64,000 nt of DNA, from positions 75,616 to 139,615 of the forward strand of contig JACPNK010000002.1 in assembly GCA_016185525.1 (NCBI GenBank). The letters run 5' to 3'. Source of the DNA: Candidatus Yanofskybacteria bacterium (lineage in GTDB: Bacteria > Patescibacteriota > Minisyncoccia > 2-02-FULL-40-12 > IGHO2-12-FULL-4). Of the stretch, positions 6,219 through 33,730 are shown piece after piece (the first letter of the stretch is position 1; each line of letters opens with the position of its first letter). The notes below the pieces were generated by a model. It did no database searches and had not been told where the DNA came from. It saw only the letters and a program-made list of their open reading frames with translations. The position numbers and the translations under genes are program-made.

Positions 6219-7466
6219 ATGCTTGACATCAAATTCATTCGTCAAAATCCGGAGTTAGTTAAAGAAGCGTCTCGGAAAAAGGGAGTCAAAGTTGATATTG
6301 ACCAGCTTTTGGCTGTGGATGAGAGGCGCAGGCATGTTTTGCGGGAATTGGAACAAAAAAGAAGCGAACAGAACAAGGGCTCTACGGGTGGACCGAAATT
6401 GCCGGTTGAGTTAGAGAAATTAAAAAAACTGAAAGAAGAAATTAAAATTCTTGAAGAGGGGATCGGTCATATTGAAAAAGAATTTGACGAACTGATGCTT
6501 CAAGTGCCGCAAGTTCCCGATGTTTCAGTTCCGGAGGGCAGGAGCGATGCTGACAACAAAGAAATCAGAAATTGGGGCAAGATTCCTAAATTTGATTTTA
6601 AGGCAAAAGACTATGTAGAACTTATGGCGGATTTAAATTTGATTGACACAGAAAGGGGGGCCAAGGTTTCCGGTTTCCGAGGTTATTTTCTAAAAAACGA
6701 AGCCGTCTTGCTTTCTCAAGCCTTATGGAGTTTGGCTTTAGAGAAAATTATTAAAAAAGGTTTTACGCCTCTTGTCGCTCCGGCTATCGCTAAAGGTTTT
6801 AATTTTGTCGGCACCGGCTGGCTGCCGCAGGGTAAAGACGAGGTTTATAAAATTGGTGAGGATGACTTTTTAATTGGCACCTCTGAAGTTTCGGTTATGG
6901 GTTATCACGCCAATGAGGTTTTGTCGGAAAAGAATTTGCCTAAAAAATATATTGCTTTTTCTCCTTGTTTTCGTTCCGAGGCCGGTTCTTATGGCAAGGA
7001 CACAAAAGGAATTTTCCGGGTGCATGAATTTTATAAAATTGAGCAGGTAGTTATTTGTAAAAATGACCACGAAGAATCAGTAAGGTGGCACGAGGAAATT
7101 ACCAAGAATTCCGAAGAATTAATGCAAGCCCTGAAACTGCCGTACAGAGTTGTGGTAAATTGCGCCGGTGACTTAGGTTTGGGACAAGTGAAGAAATATG
7201 ATATTGAGACTTGGTTGCCTTCTCAAGAGAGATACAGAGAAACTCATTCGGCTTCTTACTTTCACGATTTTCAGACCAGAAGATTGGGCATAAGATACAA
7301 AGACAAACACAGTAAAATACAATTTGCCTACTCGCTTAATAATACCGCCGTTGCCACGCCCAGAATTTTGGCGAATATTGTGGAAAATTATCAGACCAAG
7401 AAGGGGACGGTAAAAATTCCGAAGGTTTTGCAGAAGTATATGTTTGGGGTTAAAGAAATAAAATGA
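6219..7466 (+). CDS. serS: serine--tRNA ligase
   Basis: N-terminal MLDIKFIRQNPE coiled-coil arm, class II motifs FRSEAGSYGKDTKGIFRVHEF, GLGQ..KYDIE. Confidence 0.95.
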   Translation: MLDIKFIRQNPELVKEASRKKGVKVDIDQLLAVDERRRHVLRELEQKRSEQNKGSTGGPKLPVELEKLKKLKEEIKILEEGIGHIEKEFDELMLQVPQVPDVSVPEGRSDADNKEIRNWGKIPKFDFKAKDYVELMADLNLIDTERGAKVSGFRGYFLKNEAVLLSQALWSLALEKIIKKGFTPLVAPAIAKGFNFVGTGWLPQGKDEVYKIGEDDFLIGTSEVSVMGYHANEVLSEKNLPKKYIAFSPCFRSEAGSYGKDTKGIFRVHEFYKIEQVVICKNDHEESVRWHEEITKNSEELMQALKLPYRVVVNCAGDLGLGQVKKYDIETWLPSQERYRETHSASYFHDFQTRRLGIRYKDKHSKIQFAYSLNNTAVATPRILANIVENYQTKKGTVKIPKVLQKYMFGVKEIK

Positions 7467-17102: not shown

Positions 17103-17199
17103 AAATCAGCGTCTTTTCATTATATCACAATAATTTATGCGTTTATCACTTATCCACAGCTCTGTTGTCGTAAAAGTCGGTAGATGTTAAAATTTATCT

Positions 17200-27756: not shown

Positions 27757-27827
27757 TGCCGGGTGGTGAAGCGGTATCACGCCTGCCTTTGAAGCAGGAA
27801 TCCTAGGTCCGACCCCTAGCCCGGCAG
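27757..27827 (+). tRNA. tRNA-Gln (anticodon UUG)
   Basis: Cloverleaf: acceptor UGCCGGG/CCCGGCA (U1:A72, G73 as in bacterial tRNA-Gln), D-stem GUGA/UCAC with GG in loop, anticodon stem CCUGC/GCAGG loop CUUUGAA, T-stem CUAGG/CCUAG; no encoded CCA. Confidence 0.8.
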
Positions 27828-27829
27828 CA

Positions 27830-28582
27830 ATGAAATTCCCAAAAGATTTTATAAATAAGATTGTCTGCGGTGATGTTTTAGATGTGATGAGGCAGATCCC
27901 GGACGGCTCTATTGATTTAGTAATTACTTCACCGCCGTATAATCTCAAGAACTCTACCGGCAATGGCATGAAAGACGGGCGCGGCGGTAAATGGGCGAAC
28001 GCCGCATTACAAAAAGGTTATTCTCATCATAACGATAATATGCCTCACGAAGAATATGTTAAGTGGCAAAAGGATTGTCTTACAGAAATGATGCGGATTA
28101 TTCCGGACCACGGCGCAATCTTTTATAACCACAAGAGACGCGTTCAGGACGGCATATTACAGGATCGCCAAGATATAGTGAGTGGTTTTCCGGTACGCCA
28201 AATTATAATTTGGAAGCGTAAGGGTGGGTTCAACTTTAATCCCGGTTATTTTCTTCCCATTCACGAAGTTATTTATCTTATCGCAAAGCCAAAGTTTCAA
28301 CTTGTCCCTAAAGCCAATGCCCATGGTGATGTCTGGGAATTTACGCAAGAAATGAAAAATAAACATCCGGCTGCTTTTCCGGTTGATTTAATTGACCGGA
28401 TTGTTTCATCTACTAATGCCCAAACTATTTTAGACCCCTTCATTGGCTCCGGTACTACGGCAATCTCCGCTATCAATTATAAAAGAAATTATATTGGGAT
28501 TGAGATTTCTCCCGAATACTGTAAAATGGCACAACAAAGGATTAAAGGCCATAAATCTCAAGACCCCTTTTTATTACAATGA
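27830..28582 (+). CDS. DNA methyltransferase, beta-class N4-cytosine/N6-adenine (N6_N4_Mtase family)
   Basis: Motif IV SPPY (LVITSPPYN) near N-terminus and motif I DPFIGSGTT near C-terminus; starts 3 nt after tRNA. Confidence 0.9.
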   Translation: MKFPKDFINKIVCGDVLDVMRQIPDGSIDLVITSPPYNLKNSTGNGMKDGRGGKWANAALQKGYSHHNDNMPHEEYVKWQKDCLTEMMRIIPDHGAIFYNHKRRVQDGILQDRQDIVSGFPVRQIIIWKRKGGFNFNPGYFLPIHEVIYLIAKPKFQLVPKANAHGDVWEFTQEMKNKHPAAFPVDLIDRIVSSTNAQTILDPFIGSGTTAISAINYKRNYIGIEISPEYCKMAQQRIKGHKSQDPFLLQ

Positions 28583-29376
28583 AAAAAGAACCAGTTATTT
28601 ATACAAAACCGGCGCTTATAAAAAAGCTCAAAGAAATTGCCGCTCTGGGTTGGATTAAGAATGCTCGTCATGGCAATCAGGGCGGTGTTGGAAATACTTT
28701 AGAAGATTTGCTTGGTATAGAGGAAAACAATTTACCGATTCCCAACGCGGCCGAATGGGAGCTAAAGACACAAAGATTAAATTCCGGCTCTTTGTGTACT
28801 CTTTTTCATATGGAGCCATCGCCAAGGGCTATTGGATTTGTTCCAAAAGTCCTTTTGCCTAAATATGGCTGGGCTCATCAGGAGGACGGTAAAAAATATG
28901 CTAAAGGAGAGCTAAGTTTCCGATTGACTATCCACGGTCTTTCTAGGAGCGATCGCGGATTCATGGTTAAGATAGACCGGGCGGAAAAAAGGGTATTAAT
29001 CTCCTTTAATTCTAAAAGTGTAGATGTGCGGCACAAGAAATGGCTTAAATCAGTTGAGAAGCGTATAGGGTTAGGCGAATTAAACCCGCAACCCTATTGG
29101 GGGTTTGACGATTTAGAGCATAAAGCCGGCACTAAACTACTAAATGCTTTTTATGTTCAGGCCGAAGTTAAAAAGATACGAGGCAAAGAATATTACAAAT
29201 ATAGTAAGGTTATGATGTTGCAGAAGTTTAGTTTTGAGGGATTTTTGAGGGCCATCGAGGAAGCGCGAATTCTTGTAGATTTTGATGCCCGCACCGGCCA
29301 TAATCACGGGACGAAATTTAGGGTAAGGGAAGATAGTTTGCCGATGTTATATCAGAAAATAACTACCATATTATGA
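28579..29376 (+). CDS. Type II restriction endonuclease, MvaI/BcnI family
   Basis: Collinear pattern matches with BcnI/MvaI as recalled (GGVGNTLEDLLGIEENN..AEWELKT..SLCTLFHMEP; C-terminal GHNHGTKFRV..LPMLYQKI); ATGA overlap with MTase. Confidence 0.7.
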   Translation: MKKEPVIYTKPALIKKLKEIAALGWIKNARHGNQGGVGNTLEDLLGIEENNLPIPNAAEWELKTQRLNSGSLCTLFHMEPSPRAIGFVPKVLLPKYGWAHQEDGKKYAKGELSFRLTIHGLSRSDRGFMVKIDRAEKRVLISFNSKSVDVRHKKWLKSVEKRIGLGELNPQPYWGFDDLEHKAGTKLLNAFYVQAEVKKIRGKEYYKYSKVMMLQKFSFEGFLRAIEEARILVDFDARTGHNHGTKFRVREDSLPMLYQKITTIL

Positions 29377-30104
29377 AAAACATAAAAGAATCCAAACCCT
29401 GGAAAGTTGGTAAAAAGGTGAACGACTTCTTACTTCACTGGATTGGTTTTGATTTAATCATCTTCTTCATTTTGGTTGTATTGAGTGCTATCTTTATTTA
29501 TTTTGATCCTCGGTCTGATTTTAATAAACTCGCCGTTTCTTTAATTCTTTTGACAACGGCATTATCACTTATTCAATATACCAAAGAGACACACAGGCTT
29601 AGGCTTTCAAATAAATGGCTCCTCGATAGCAACGATAAATCAAACAGTATAGCAGTAAGGCCGATACTTGCACCACGTTTTTTAGAGACAAATTACGGTA
29701 CTTCTAATTATATTTCGATTAATCTAAAGAATGTAGGAGGAGGGGTTGCGAAGAATATCCACTGGAGTATTAAATCAAATAAAGATTCAGATGTTCTGGC
29801 CGATAAAGATTTGTTTTGGAGGGATTTGAACAAAGACTTATTACCTAAACTTTGGCCTAACTTTGGGTATAGACTAACAATGTTCAAGAAAATGAATTAT
29901 GACAATCTGTGGAAATCCATTCTTGTCGTTAAGTATGATTGGGAATTTGGGAACAACGAAACTGAAACTTTTCCGTTAGACCTAGATTATTACACATCCT
30001 CTGACTTATCCGGAAATGTCTTGGAAATGTTGGACGATGTCTGGGTTCATGGAAAAATTAGAGAAATTGCAATTCAGCGCATTGAATCACAGTCAAAGGA
30101 ATAA
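29373..30104 (+). CDS. hypothetical protein with two N-terminal TM helices (243 aa), translationally coupled to REase
   Basis: ATGA overlap with REase stop; no recognisable domain. Confidence 0.55.
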   Translation: MKNIKESKPWKVGKKVNDFLLHWIGFDLIIFFILVVLSAIFIYFDPRSDFNKLAVSLILLTTALSLIQYTKETHRLRLSNKWLLDSNDKSNSIAVRPILAPRFLETNYGTSNYISINLKNVGGGVAKNIHWSIKSNKDSDVLADKDLFWRDLNKDLLPKLWPNFGYRLTMFKKMNYDNLWKSILVVKYDWEFGNNETETFPLDLDYYTSSDLSGNVLEMLDDVWVHGKIREIAIQRIESQSKE

Positions 30105-30127
30105 GGTAAGTTTATCTTTTATAAGAC

Positions 30128-30358
30128 ATGTATATATTTAAATTTGTCTATTCTAATCTAGGTCTTATCCTAAACACACTAGGTAGTATTTTAGTAGTTG
30201 TATCTATTGGTAAATTTCCAGATGGTTTTGGTGGATCAACGACAAGTAATAAAGGTAGAGAATATCACTTTGCCTATGTAACTAGACCAACGGGTTTGAG
30301 AGCAGGTCTCTTGTTAATAATTCTAGGGTTTATCCTACAGATATTAGAGAAATATTAA
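30128..30358 (+). CDS. small 2-TM membrane protein (76 aa)
   Basis: Two hydrophobic helices; 23 nt after previous gene. Confidence 0.4.
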   Translation: MYIFKFVYSNLGLILNTLGSILVVVSIGKFPDGFGGSTTSNKGREYHFAYVTRPTGLRAGLLLIILGFILQILEKY

Positions 30359-30461
30359 TGTTGTATTAAATAGTTTCTAATGTCAGTCAGTGCCCGGCAG
30401 CCATCCTTCGCCAAGGCTTCGGAATGGCTTTGGCAAAACTTATGAAAGCTACGAACGAGCT

Positions 30462-30566
30462 GACCACGACGGGTCAAGAATGAATACGCCACCCGGGTGG
30501 CGTATTGAGGAGAACGGTATTTGCATTGCCCTTCCGAAATCCGCCAAATGGCAGAAGAAGGAGGGA
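30462..30566 (+). repeat. GC-rich repeat copy A (85-nt identical core 30482-30566 with perfect 24-bp palindrome AATACGCCACCCGGGTGGCGTATT); candidate structured RNA/mobile element
   Basis: Identical to 32836-32920; degenerate similarity extends upstream to ~30400. Confidence 0.85.
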
Positions 30567-30632
30567 CACCTTTTCCGGACCAAAGGTCGAAGTCAGATTT
30601 ACGCAGGGTGTTTTAATTGATATACTAGGTCT

Positions 30633-30833
30633 ATGCAAAAAATAGCTACAAAAATTTTCGTCTGGGCGTCCGTCGCTTTCGCCATCATCGGAATGCTGAT
30701 GGTTTTAACCACCTCTCCCACAAGTAACGGTCCGAACGTTATTTTGTTAAAATTTCTGTTCGCGGCTATTATCGTTATTTTGACCTCATTTGCCTTAAGC
30801 ATTGCCGGCAAGTATCTAAACGGTAAGTTTTAG
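30633..30833 (+). CDS. small membrane protein (66 aa)
   Basis: Two TM helices; weak. Confidence 0.3.
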   Translation: MQKIATKIFVWASVAFAIIGMLMVLTTSPTSNGPNVILLKFLFAAIIVILTSFALSIAGKYLNGKF

Positions 30834-30971
30834 TTCTAATGTGGCCAAGGAAATTAAATTTGTATAATAAGTTATGCGCATAAACAAATTTTACAAACTA
30901 GTTATTTCAGTTGCGTTGGTCACCGGCGAGAGGCGCGGCATATTTTTCATAGAACAATATGTAAGAATATC

Positions 30972-31598
30972 ATGATAAAAGCATTGATTTTTGATGTTGG
31001 AGGCGTCTTATTTTTAGCTAAAAGCAGAAAAGAAAAAAACCTTTTGTCTTCGTTTAATGAAGCGTGTTTATTGCTGGAGAATTTTGGGATAGATGTGACA
31101 AGCTCTAAAGAAAAACTTACTGGTATTTATAAGAAATCTTCTGGGGGCGATATAACTAGAGAAGAAACACTAGCTCTTATGTCCACAGAGCTGGGAGTAA
31201 CGCAAACGCAGCTAGAAGAATATTTTAGAAGAGTTTATTCAGATAACTCAATAGAGAACAAAGAACTCTATGGCCATATATTAAAATTTAAAAAAGATGG
31301 ACTTAAGATTGGAATTTTATCTACTCAGTTTCATCTATCCAAAGATGTTTTGGTTCCAGCCAAATACTACGAAAACTTTGATGCTTTGGTAATATCATGT
31401 GACGATAAATTGAAAAAACCCGAAGAGAAATCTTTTATATTAATACTCCGGAGGTTGGGCGTAAAACCAGAAGAGACTATTTTTATAGACGATAAGCAAG
31501 AAAATTTGGATATCGCTGAAAAATTAGGAATGAAATCCGTCCTATTTAAAAACAACAAGCAATTTTTCTCTAAGCTAAAAAAGTTTGATATTGAATAA
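30972..31598 (+). CDS. HAD-superfamily hydrolase (subfamily IA-like)
   Basis: Motif I IFDVGGVLF, motif IV IFIDDKQENLD. Confidence 0.8.
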   Translation: MIKALIFDVGGVLFLAKSRKEKNLLSSFNEACLLLENFGIDVTSSKEKLTGIYKKSSGGDITREETLALMSTELGVTQTQLEEYFRRVYSDNSIENKELYGHILKFKKDGLKIGILSTQFHLSKDVLVPAKYYENFDALVISCDDKLKKPEEKSFILILRRLGVKPEETIFIDDKQENLDIAEKLGMKSVLFKNNKQFFSKLKKFDIE

Positions 31599-31642
31599 TT
31601 AGGAAAGAAAAGGCACAGTGTAAAATATGATAATTTGCGCTT

Positions 31643-32056
31643 ATGGTGCATAGTTTAAGTTATTTAATGGAAGCAGAAAAAATCCAAGATGGCGACTTGG
31701 AGGGTTTAGGTATTGAAATTAAAGATAGAACAGCTGACGGCGATCGTATGCTTGTTATACCCGATGACCGGTTGCCCCAATACATTGAACTTGTAAAGGA
31801 TAAACTAACCAATGGCTTTTGGAACGAAATAGTGGGCGAAAAGGACATAATTTTCATTTTCAAGTTTCAAGATGGGCATATTGAAGAATATAAGCTGTCT
31901 CCAGAAAACGAGAGGGAAATAGATAAGCTGTGCGCCGAGTTTAATAATGAACCACCAGATAAAACGACAAATGTTTATAAATACATATCAGATAATAAGT
32001 TTTATCACGATTTTATGATGGAGCATTACAAAGATATGATTGAGAGAAAGCTATGA
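31643..32056 (+). CDS. hypothetical protein (start possibly 31667)
   Basis: ATGA overlap with downstream kinase gene. Confidence 0.45.
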   Translation: MVHSLSYLMEAEKIQDGDLEGLGIEIKDRTADGDRMLVIPDDRLPQYIELVKDKLTNGFWNEIVGEKDIIFIFKFQDGHIEEYKLSPENEREIDKLCAEFNNEPPDKTTNVYKYISDNKFYHDFMMEHYKDMIERKL

Positions 32057-32643
32057 AGACCATTTTTATAGGCATTGTTGGTCCATCTGGTTCTGGCAAG
32101 ACAACTCTTTGCAAAAAGCTGAAGTTGTCTAACAAAAATCACGAACACATAAGATTAGATAACTATTTTAAGAACCCTCAGACTTTTCCACTAAAGAACG
32201 GCTTCCGAAACTGGGAAAAACCATCTAACCTTAAATTTGATGTTTTATTGAAGCATTTGAAAGCATTACAAAACGGCAAAGAAGTTCATACAAAATCGTT
32301 TCCCAAGAGAGCAGGAGCTAAACCAACTCCAATAACACTAAAACCTAAACCGATTATCCTTATTGAGGGCTTTATGCTTTTTAAGGACAAGAGGGTGCGA
32401 GATATGCTTGATGTTAAGATTTACCTGGAAATACATCCCGAACTGATGCTTAAACGCCGAGCTATTAGATTCGGAGAAGCTCATATAACCGACTATGATA
32501 CTAAAGTTGCCATTCCAGAATTTTTGAAACACGGCACTACCCAAAAGAAATATGCCGATTATGTGGTTGATGCCACAAGGTCACAACCCCAAGTAATTAA
32601 AGAGGTTCAAAAAATAATTAACCAAAACCTTACCAACTTCTAA
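32053..32643 (+). CDS. uridine kinase/phosphoribulokinase-family P-loop nucleoside kinase
   Basis: IGIVGPSGSGKTT Walker A, RLDNYF, ILIEGFMLF; 196 aa. Confidence 0.7.
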   Translation: MKTIFIGIVGPSGSGKTTLCKKLKLSNKNHEHIRLDNYFKNPQTFPLKNGFRNWEKPSNLKFDVLLKHLKALQNGKEVHTKSFPKRAGAKPTPITLKPKPIILIEGFMLFKDKRVRDMLDVKIYLEIHPELMLKRRAIRFGEAHITDYDTKVAIPEFLKHGTTQKKYADYVVDATRSQPQVIKEVQKIINQNLTNF

Positions 32644-32815
32644 CAAATCCAAACGGCAGGTACAATTCTATACCTGCCAGTCGGGCACCGAATGGTACCC
32701 GATGATGAAGGGCCGGTTATGCCCATAATTGAGGTTCTAATATCGTCCAAGAAACGCAGCAGTCCCGTGACAGGCTTTGCCCGTCCATAGCCCCTTGACG
32801 AAGGAGGGTTCTTGC

Positions 32816-32920
32816 GACCACGACCTGTCAAAAACGAATACGCCACCCGGGTGGCGTATTGAGGAGAACGGTATTTGCATTGCCCTTCCGAAATCCGCCA
32901 AATGGCAGAAGAAGGAGGGA
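32816..32920 (+). repeat. GC-rich repeat copy B (85-nt core 32836-32920 identical to copy A)
   Basis: Direct repeat 2354 bp downstream of copy A; tails diverge but both contain ttttccggacc. Confidence 0.85.
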
Positions 32921-33117
32921 TGTTTTTCAATTCAACGATGGGGGATGGGGGCAACCGGCCCAGCAACAAGAACGGCGTTTTCCGGACCGTAGCATAAAGC
33001 GGGCCTGTGGATAATCGTTGACTTTAATTGTTTAGGTATGATAGTATATGAGTGTGCTTGTGGGCGAAAGCCCCGTTCAGCTAAGGAACACCTAAGCTGA
33101 AGGCAGGCACAACAAAA

Positions 33118-33140
33118 ACACCGCTTTAAGCGGTATTTTT
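33118..33140 (-). terminator. bidirectional hairpin caccgcttta-agcggt with flanking A/T runs
   Basis: On minus strand hairpin followed by UUUUUGUUGUG directly after stop of 33142..33603. Confidence 0.55.
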
Positions 33141-33141
33141 G

Positions 33142-33603
33142 TTACTCATCTTCAATTCCTTCAGTAAAAAGCTTCTGGCCATTTTTAAGCTTAGAGTATG
33201 GCATTACACTCCAAAATATAATATTGCCATCACCAACCCTTCTCAATACTGTTCTTATCTTAATTTGATTTTCTCCGACTATAGCCACAAATCCCCAGTA
33301 GGCAATGTTCTTTGTTTTTGAAAAACCGTCCCTTCCCTTCTTTCCAATTTCTACTAAACCTCTCCTAAACTCCTGCAATGTTCCGGCGTTTTTAATAATC
33401 TGAATAGCCAACGGTAATAAACTAAATTTCAGTAGCTGTTCCTTTTTGTCTCTTTCTCTTCGTGCTGAGAACTGGAGATGGTGAAATCCATCAGAATTGA
33501 AGATAACCTGACTTTTAAGATAAGGATTGGAAATGCTCTTTTGCTTGTTATATATTGTTCTTGCCTTTTCTTTTCGTTGATTGAAATATTCAACATCATC
33601 CAT
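33142..33603 (-). CDS. hypothetical protein (153 aa)
   Basis: ORF only; lone minus-strand gene at edge of accessory segment. Confidence 0.45.
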   Translation of the reverse strand: MDDVEYFNQRKEKARTIYNKQKSISNPYLKSQVIFNSDGFHHLQFSARRERDKKEQLLKFSLLPLAIQIIKNAGTLQEFRRGLVEIGKKGRDGFSKTKNIAYWGFVAIVGENQIKIRTVLRRVGDGNIIFWSVMPYSKLKNGQKLFTEGIEDE

Positions 33604-33730
33604 ATCTAAGGATATTAGCTTATTTTATCTAAAACACAACCAATCGTACCACTAAAGAAAGAATATTCTTGACTTGAAAAAGAAGGTTTTTGGTTTCGGC
33701 TTAATTTTTGTTAGAATAGACGCGTCCCAC

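Follow-up and report, generated by a model that had tools for sequence, protein, structure and literature searches.

Direct copies of a hairpin repeat shared across the Candidate Phyla Radiation bracket a four-gene cassette in a Yanofskybacteria island

What does it mean that a GC-rich, palindrome-bearing sequence stands twice, in the same orientation, around a small group of genes in a bacterium of the Candidate Phyla Radiation (CPR, Patescibacteria)? The case comes from a contig of a Candidatus Yanofskybacteria metagenome-assembled genome (MAG), of which we analyzed a stretch of 64,000 nucleotides (the window). A repeat search found a sole family of direct repeats in it, a 105-nt composite unit at 30462..30566 (copy A) and 32816..32920 (copy B, in direct orientation) with 96% identity and a spacing of 2354, and a script comparison showed that 30482-30566 and 32836-32920 agree letter for letter over 85 nt. 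The first-pass annotation of this DNA had described two direct copies with an identical 85-nt core and a perfect palindrome, and both methods confirm it. The unit consists of a 21-nt left arm, a hairpin, and a 60-nt right arm; all four mismatches fall within the first 21 nt, and the hairpin is the perfect 24-nt palindrome AATACGCCACCCGGGTGGCGTATT at 30483-30506 and 32837-32860. At up to three mismatches the 24-mer has two matches in the window and none in 100 shuffles. The copies occupy the noncoding gaps 30359-30632 (A) and 32644-33141 (B), and the raised GC content noted earlier also holds, with 50-58% in the repeat-bearing intergenic stretches against about 33-41% nearby. Of the flank motifs that had been described as shared, GACCACGAC does start both copies (30462 and 32816) and TTTTCCGGACC does recur to the right of each (30571 and 32978, after a 53-nt length difference), but similarity left of the 105 nt is not significant (28/300 shuffles score as high) and similarity to the right, where TTTTCCGGACC recurs, is borderline (2/300). 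The window is matched at 100% identity by independent Logan assemblies of four or more sequencing runs. These stop about 30 bases inside the repeat, the behavior expected of a k = 31 graph at a genuine repeat, so the repeat is in the reads and is not an artifact of assembly.

The palindrome is not confined to this genome. A scan for the exact 24-mer in one genome per species (185,579 species) returned 20 sites in about 13 genomes, with 1-4 sites per genome. Carriers include Saccharibacteria, Wolfebacteria, Sungbacteria, Vogelbacteria, and Doudnabacteria, and every match with a named lineage belongs to the CPR; five matches from three MAGs are labeled just "bacterium". The window and these 20 genome sites have the palindrome alone in common, not the other 60 nt of the window unit. 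When four loop positions and one stem position were left free, a metagenome scan matched at least 120 contigs, which come from few sampling sites and are not independent counts. Among the matches listed, the family can be modeled as a 9-bp stem, AATACGCCA/TGGCGTATT (9-11 bp overall), closed by a 6-nt loop of the form CCCG-NN. The last two loop bases (positions 5-6) alone vary freely, GG, which yields the perfect palindrome, being the commonest pair; because variation is restricted to these positions, the hairpin motif is strand-asymmetric. Two flanking positions on each side are biased as well: Y-S precedes the hairpin and S-R follows it, with TC...GA the most frequent form. In the window, the copy A hairpin (30483..30506) reads AATACGCCA-CCCGGG-TGGCGTATT, with a predicted RNA fold of -14.4 kcal/mol, and the copy B hairpin (32837..32860) continues on the minus strand into the terminator-like CGTTTTTGAC. 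Searched with filters off, a covariance model of the family recovers just the window pair from the 64 kb; under model R1 both copies score 46-47 bits (E about 1e-9), with an exact stem and the loop CCCGGG. Both window copies thus belong to a CPR-wide, structurally constrained, intergenic hairpin family.

Evidence for the structural constraint comes from secondary copies, that is, copies found in the same contigs and not forced by the search pattern. These carry compensatory double changes in the lower stem and keep the apical CCA-CCCGNN-TGG: an A-U pair has become G-C in L108, and two pairs have changed in each of L031, L112, and L122. Across 142 family sequences, 94% of cells are paired and both sides have changed in 7 of 11 pairs; the observed pairing values were reached by none of 500 shuffles, and slid controls collapse. 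The compensatory changes taken with the shuffle test indicate that the hairpin is selected as a structure with a sequence-specific top. An assignment of the strand from wobble pairs came out symmetric (T.G 16 vs C.A 17).

Nine-nucleotide inverted half-sites around a 6-bp spacer could also be a double-stranded DNA operator for a conserved CPR regulator, comparable to the controlling inverted repeat of chaperone expression (CIRCE), the HrcA operator. The two are alike in the 9-nt inverted repeat, the fixed spacer, the few copies per genome, and the retention across very distant bacteria, and LexA-like, ArsR-like, and winged helix-turn-helix (wHTH) genes are often near the CPR hairpins. CIRCE, however, lies upstream of chaperone operons with constant half-sites, whereas the CPR hairpins have unrelated neighbors and stems with compensatory change. 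Single contigs mix canonical copies with copies whose lower stems are changed on both sides, which points to pairing and not half-site sequence as the property maintained. In addition, the spacer is conserved asymmetrically, the position relative to promoters is not consistent, and the adjacent genes lack functional coherence, with 150 nonredundant neighbor proteins spread over 139 Pfam families. We consider an operator very improbable.

The hairpin is intergenic at 20 of 20 genome loci. It shows no orientation bias with respect to neighboring genes: copies follow stop codons, precede starts, and occupy spacers between convergent and between divergent genes. Of 138 unique copies, eight lie 6-33 nt past the 3' end of a tRNA or transfer-messenger RNA (tmRNA) gene, five of them at 6-7 nt, with none before a 5' end. 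Flanking A-runs or U-runs of the kind seen at bidirectional terminators occur in about a third of 22 inspected copies, and the loci L005, L011, L016, and L018 have A-run/T-run extensions. An intrinsic-terminator scan of the window passed the minus strand of copy B (CGTTTTTGAC) and not copy A (CATTCTTGAC) or either plus-strand reading (GAGGAG...). For 23 locus pairs, homology of at least 40 nt abuts the hairpin on one side with none on the other; the family hairpin often forms the boundary at which homology between loci stops.

A simple account of these placements is that the family consists of plain conserved terminators or 3'-end hairpins, that the window pair arose by local duplication or gene conversion, and that the hairpins have no part in moving cassettes; homology would then break at them merely because they end transcription units. 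The GC-rich 10-11-bp stem, strong at -14.4 kcal/mol, resembles that of intrinsic terminators, as do the A-run before and U-run after it in a subset of copies and the extensions at the four loci above, the U-tract of copy B on the minus strand, and the location just past many stop codons and 6-7 nt after tRNA and tmRNA genes. Intrinsic terminators, however, are not sequence-conserved between genes or phyla, and a terminator needs neither a 24-nt identity across CPR classes nor a conserved loop. About two-thirds of the 22 inspected copies have no U-tract, copies stand equally often before starts and between divergent genes, and composite units containing the hairpin recur as direct pairs around single accessory genes, as described below. 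We regard this account as unlikely on balance.

The hairpin often adjoins other conserved hairpin modules, ACAACATTC...GAATGTTGT, CCTTACAAACTGGAGTTTGTAAGG, and ATTGAGGTT-NA-ACCTCAAT, in varying combinations, and by analogy these combinations are a mosaic like those of the bacterial interspersed mosaic elements (BIMEs) or the neisserial intergenic mosaic elements (NIMEs). Further intergenic modules of this type in CPR DNA are ACAACATTCYAACATTCT-N4-AGAATGTTRGAATGTTGT, again CCTTACAAACTGGAGTTTGTAAGG and ATTGAGGTT-NA-ACCTCAAT, and AATGTTCAAA...TTTGAACATT; the order in which they join the AATACGCC hairpin varies, for example in L007, L019, L027, L038, L063, L099, L103, L114, and L139. A GC-rich motif left of copy A, CCTTCGCCAAGGCTTCGG (30405..30422, plus strand), likewise recurs as CCTTCGCCAAGGCTTCGG(CGGGCAGGC) in unrelated CPR loci (L122 ~6425-6446, L032 ~2774-2802, L078 ~1384-1401), in several cases no more than about 150 nt from a hairpin, with looser versions in L020 and L008; a related motif, CTACGGGGCAGGCAAACGAAAA, immediately precedes hairpins in L048, L057, and L088.

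Of the interpretations offered in the first-pass annotation, an element like a repetitive extragenic palindrome (REP) or a miniature inverted-repeat transposable element (MITE) is the closest: a dispersed, intergenic CPR hairpin family does exist, although terminal inverted repeats, target-site duplications, a GTAG-type signature, and a nearby REP-associated tyrosine transposase (RAYT) were not found. REPs and BIMEs of Enterobacteria and Pseudomonas, which are associated with RAYTs, can act as terminators, mRNA stabilizers, or recombination hot spots. They resemble the CPR hairpin in being short (20-40 nt), sequence-conserved extragenic palindromes that lie after or between genes in either orientation and join other short modules in mosaic units. 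They differ in number, with hundreds of copies per genome against tens for the CPR hairpin (about 1 per 30-70 kb in the DNA examined), and in sequence, since the CPR hairpin is without a GTAG-type 5' tetranucleotide and has Y-S / S-R flanks instead. No RAYT was seen near CPR hairpins in the 25 commonest neighbor families or the window island. Moreover, REP sequences are species- or genus-specific, whereas the CPR 24-mer is common to several CPR classes; that the same 24-mer is kept across these classes is the unusual property here, within the known kind of dispersed intergenic palindromic repeats.

These likenesses leave room for a self-propagating hairpin, whether REP/RAYT-like, derived from IS200/IS605 in the manner of palindrome-associated transposable elements (PATEs), or otherwise mobilized in trans, with the 105-nt unit as the mobile entity and the window pair as two independent insertions. 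Conservation across lineages at low copy number, the extragenic location, and the mixing with other hairpin modules as in BIMEs agree with this, as does the strand-asymmetric loop, which is typical of sites read as single-stranded hairpins. Against it, neither target-site duplications nor terminal inverted repeats accompany the 105-nt unit, the commonest neighbor families include no Y1/HUH transposase, the 60-nt arm was not found elsewhere in the sequence sets searched, and the density of about 1 secondary copy per 70 kb (two in about 140 kb of DNA from other genomes) is far below that of REPs. Independent insertions of a mobile hairpin are, in our view, distinctly unlikely. A MITE in particular was rejected, as the 105-nt unit does not end in inverted repeats (GACCACGAC... 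at one end, ...GGAGGGA at the other) and the bases beside each copy are not duplicated.

Genes for restriction, toxins, and other accessory functions are frequent neighbors of the hairpin. The commonest neighbor families are Fic/DOC, GIY-YIG, wHTH, DNA methylases (N6_Mtase, EcoRI, Eco57I, MmeI), RadC, AbiEii, and HicB-like proteins; no transposase, integrase, or Y1 HUH enzyme (RAYT) is among the 25 commonest Pfam families of the 150 hairpin-adjacent proteins. One protein family of ~113 aa, with an N-terminal transmembrane helix and a C-terminal winged helix (44-100% mutual identity), ends 4-72 nt before the hairpin at L041, L042, L052, L077, L084, L094, L106, L116, L121, L128, L138, and L141, its gene often beside an ArsR-like gene. 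As a general partner of the hairpin this protein (about 15 metagenome loci) was rejected, since the window has no homologue.

Where the copies stand in the window bears on their role. Gene order runs from tau through a major facilitator superfamily (MFS) gene, tRNA-Gln, a type II methylase with an MvaI/BcnI-family endonuclease, and two unknown ORFs to copy A; then through a 66-aa membrane protein, a haloacid dehalogenase (HAD) phosphatase, an unknown protein, and a uridine-kinase-like protein to copy B; and on through a candidate small RNA, a 153-aa ORF, an amylase, and glycogen synthase. In L145, the nearest Yanofskybacteria relative available (MFS 77% identical), homology ends after tRNA-Gln(UUG) (27757..27828, plus strand, its position kept in L145 and L147) and resumes at 33639, before the amylase gene. 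Between those points L145 has a different island of ~7 kb with a large serine recombinase (L145 3666-5205), a histidine kinase, and other genes, and no family hairpin. Because different genes lie between the same borders, 27830..33638, which holds both copies, is a strain-specific island with tRNA-Gln at its left edge, and the tRNA-Gln-to-amylase interval is an integration hot spot. Left of copy A the island carries the restriction-modification pair, an N4/N6 methyltransferase and the MvaI/BcnI-family endonuclease (27830..29376, plus strand). The bracketed cassette (30567..32815) holds four plus-strand genes, for a two-transmembrane protein of 66 aa (30633-30833), a HAD-IA phosphatase (30972-31598), a 137-aa protein with no assigned identity (31643-32056), and the uridine-kinase-like protein (32053-32643). 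Both copies lie at seams between island modules. The island differs from a typical tRNA-linked integrative island in that no significant direct repeat of the tRNA 3' end and no integrase were found in it, although L145 has its large serine recombinase at the same tRNA-Gln; the best candidate for an att duplication is a 10-nt match, GCCCGGCAGC at 30392 (E 0.46). The CCCGGG center of the hairpin comprises two overlapping CCSGG sites, and MvaI/BcnI-family enzymes recognize CCWGG / CCSGG. A link between the enzyme and the hairpin was rejected, as the window shows no depletion of CCSGG (80 observed vs 46 expected), and most members of the hairpin family are without the site.

Brackets of this sort recur. 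Sixteen loci have at least two hairpins, often around one or two genes, and at three loci the hairpin is embedded in a longer multi-hairpin unit that is directly repeated around one or more genes: a HAD hydrolase in L027, an S-adenosylmethionine (SAM)-dependent methyltransferase immediately downstream of rpoC in L139 (96 nt identical), and an ArsR-like plus wHTH pair in L091/L092. With the window included, the composite pairs are in direct orientation in four of four cases, and no recombinase was found beside any of them (window, L027, L139, L091). Hairpin sites thus delimit small accessory cassettes in the window, L027, L139, and L091, along with several pairs around one or two genes. At L027 the two hairpins (269-292 and 1050-1073) have opposite loop orientations (GACGGG vs CCCGGC) within co-oriented, near-identical flanks, and L025 159 and L091 1351 differ in a like manner, which suggests inversion of the loop mediated by the stem; such flipping would explain the missing orientation bias.

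We put at about an even chance the reading that we prefer, in which the unit is a REP/BIME/NIME-like mosaic repeat that marks a cassette-recombination junction and possibly terminates transcription too. The hairpin pair probably marks where the four-gene accessory cassette recombined in. A circular or otherwise incoming cassette with one copy of the unit could have recombined with a resident copy in a single-crossover (Campbell-type) insertion, and identity over 85 bases would allow the 2354-bp unit to be looped back out. Such an exchange might use RecA acting on the 85 nt of identity or a dedicated enzyme that recognizes the hairpin. The strong hairpin may also serve as a transcription stop or insulator between modules, a role suggested by the minus-strand U-tract of copy B and the hairpins 6-7 nt after tRNA and tmRNA genes. 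The recombination or att-like boundary proposed in the first-pass annotation fits the direct copies, the unrelated sequence outside them, the strain-specific island, and the three like loci; no recombinase or att core was found.

Several points weigh against the junction reading. Neither the window island nor the commonest hairpin-neighbor families contain an integrase, recombinase, transposase, or HUH enzyme; no empty site or excised circle was met, and the closest relative is without the whole island. The metagenome matches come from few sites, as noted. A conserved terminator that closes a transcription unit would likewise leave homology on just one side of the hairpin. The few U-tracts (about a third of the 22) and the occurrence in some divergent spacers mean that termination is not the whole story, nor does termination account for the conservation of the hairpin sequence. 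Finally, a left arm with 4 mismatches in 21 nt beside 85 identical nucleotides is equally what a gene-conversion tract between old paralogues would look like.

A more specific mechanism would make the hairpin the recognition site of a CPR-wide enzyme specific for single strands, a recombinase or an HUH-type nuclease, that inserts and excises small cassettes. This would explain why one 24-mer is kept identical across CPR classes, why the loop is asymmetric, and why composite repeats stand in direct orientation around accessory genes, and if true it would amount to integron-like cassette exchange without IntI or attC; we consider it quite unlikely. The integron attC sites are comparable as strand-specific folding hairpins that delimit small, often promoter-less accessory cassettes, and insertion of a circular cassette there leaves it bounded by such sites, as proposed here. 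They differ in that the R''/R' core sites (RYYYAAC/GTTRRRY) are missing from the hairpin consensus and from the window copies, and no IntI (in the island or beside L027, L139, and L091), no attI or Pc, and no long array was found. The window cassette also differs from an integron cassette in having four genes with a promoter-like site of its own, TTTACG-17-TATACT with TG (30598..30626, plus strand), which lies between copy A and the 66-aa gene.

The closest known kinds, besides the REP/BIME elements above, are the dRS3 repeats, NIMEs, and "minimal mobile elements" of Neisseria, in which inverted-repeat units likewise stand within 50-150-nt intergenic mosaics beside variable accessory genes. 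Cassettes between conserved flanks differ among Neisseria strains, presumably through recombination with DNA that the cells take up; dRS3 is also a target of prophage integration with a known recombinase. The comparison stops at sequence and organisms, both of which differ, and no recombinase was found here.

One gene of the cassette offers an indication of movement between genomes. The 66-aa gene is 88% identical in nucleotides and 85% in amino acids to a segment of a Saccharibacteria contig (L015 3093-3299, minus strand), and the differences by codon position (9/1/12) show that it is a real gene. In both genomes the exact palindrome lies about 100 nt upstream together with a conserved promoter-like box, TTGATATACT, the site described above being kept in L015, whereas the other genes common to the window and L015 are just 31-60% identical. 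Judged from these identities, 85% against 31-60%, the comparison points to horizontal movement of hairpin-linked genes.

The earlier proposal of a small structured RNA family is left where it stood by our results, which gave neither an Rfam match nor a homologue of the 60-nt arm nor a clear promoter. The Rfam comparison that the first-pass annotation called for found nothing on the element, either over the whole window at gathering threshold or over 30250-33250 at E ≤ 10, and nothing at gathering threshold on the hairpins of the 20 genome loci; ARAGORN called no tRNA or tmRNA in the GC-rich stretches, its sole call being tRNA-Gln at 27757-27828. The most concrete form of the idea is a pair of paralogous minus-strand small RNA genes for which the family hairpin would be the terminator and the C-rich UCCCUCCUUCUUC an anti-Shine-Dalgarno-like region able to pair with ribosome-binding sites. 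A second hairpin in the right arm, CCCTTCC...GGCAG...GGAGGG (30529..30565 in copy A, 32883..32919 in copy B), is private to this genome and has an inner-stem G-U pair on the minus strand only, which fits such genes, as do the U-tract past the copy B hairpin on that strand, the GC-rich sequence in an AT-rich setting, and the GGUCCGGAAAA common to both copies upstream on the minus strand. Neither copy, however, has a promoter-like site upstream on that strand, the U-tract of copy A is weak, and the fold z-scores of copy A (-2.2 to -2.7) are modest and those of copy B not significant. Nor is there covariation to draw on, as no arm homologue was found, and no Rfam family matches. Such a pair of small RNA genes is improbable.

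The 60-nt right arm had no relative in any sequence set searched: a metagenome scan for the palindrome plus GAGGAG, aimed at relatives of the 85-mer, gave 0 matches; the 105-mer matched nothing in phage and plasmid collections; the palindrome, the degenerate hairpin, and two arm segments had 0 matches in 2.9 million viral contigs; and a BLAST comparison of the four flanks with 774 kb of loci that bear the hairpin returned short module matches only, the 60-nt arm remaining private. An upstream motif, GTTCTAATRT, was not above chance, and nothing relevant on this sequence or on palindromic repeats of CPR bacteria turned up in the literature searched.

Could the repeats instead be fragments of a protein-coding gene? 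Two ORFs, 30390-30620 and 32777-32992, cover them, and here the first-pass view of the embedded ORFs is corrected, for both read the core in the same frame and share the peptide NTPPGWRIEENGICIALPKSAKWQKKEG, the one observation in favor of coding. A search of 5.8 billion proteins with the 76-aa plus-strand ORF over the repeat gave no homologue at E ≤ 10, the ORF has no Pfam domain, the palindrome is intergenic with unrelated flanks at the 20 other genome sites, and the shared downstream TTTTCCGGACC lies in different frames of the two ORFs. We rejected a protein-coding origin, to which almost no probability attaches, and the earlier statement that conservation is not at the protein level holds on the basis of the protein search and the out-of-frame TTTTCCGGACC. 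A diversity-generating retroelement with template and variable repeats (TR/VR) was likewise rejected, since the copy differences are not adenine-specific and no reverse transcriptase was found. The simple tandem duplication including the intervening genes, which the first-pass annotation had named as what would overturn its proposal, does not apply and was also rejected: the genes between the copies are single-copy.

CPR genomes are tiny, and little is understood of how they acquire or exchange accessory genes such as restriction systems, toxins, and salvage enzymes; to our knowledge, few classical mobile elements have been reported from them. A hairpin kept letter for letter from Saccharibacteria to Parcubacteria would be a searchable marker of gene-flow junctions, a value that derives from its position at the edges of accessory modules and its recurrence in direct composite repeats around cassettes, and it would offer a handle for finding the protein that reads it. 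Were it only a terminator, it would still be an unusual, sequence-conserved one, useful for annotating the ends of CPR transcription units. Taken alone, the element in the window is ordinary repeat biology; the larger interest lies in the family and its link to cassette junctions.

Three further features lie near copy B. Just past the kinase stop, an 11-bp hairpin at 32654-32679 (minus strand) has a T-run on the minus strand only and would stop transcription from the copy B side, not from the kinase operon. To the right of the copy, a candidate small RNA gene at 33018-33141 (plus strand) has a promoter-like TTGACT-18-TAGTAT, a ~60-nt three-way junction composed of a GGGCGAAAGCCC hairpin and an 11-bp hairpin, and its own terminator at 33120-33140. 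It is 82% conserved at L105 7345-7466, with a TTGAC-17-GATAAT promoter there and one compensatory change in the terminator stem, and its overlaps with Rfam are weak and far below gathering (best E 0.13, group-II-D1D4-4, 33058-33221). Between copy B and this gene, the DnaA-box 9-mer TTATCCACA lies at 33006-33014 (minus strand); it is also present at 17150-17158 (plus strand) and at 33 sites in other loci, for 35 occurrences in 874 kb of CPR DNA where about 7 would be expected, usually intergenic and after an AT-rich run. The sequence CAAYGATTATCCACAG is found 96-154 nt from the hairpin both in the window, beside copy B, and in L015.

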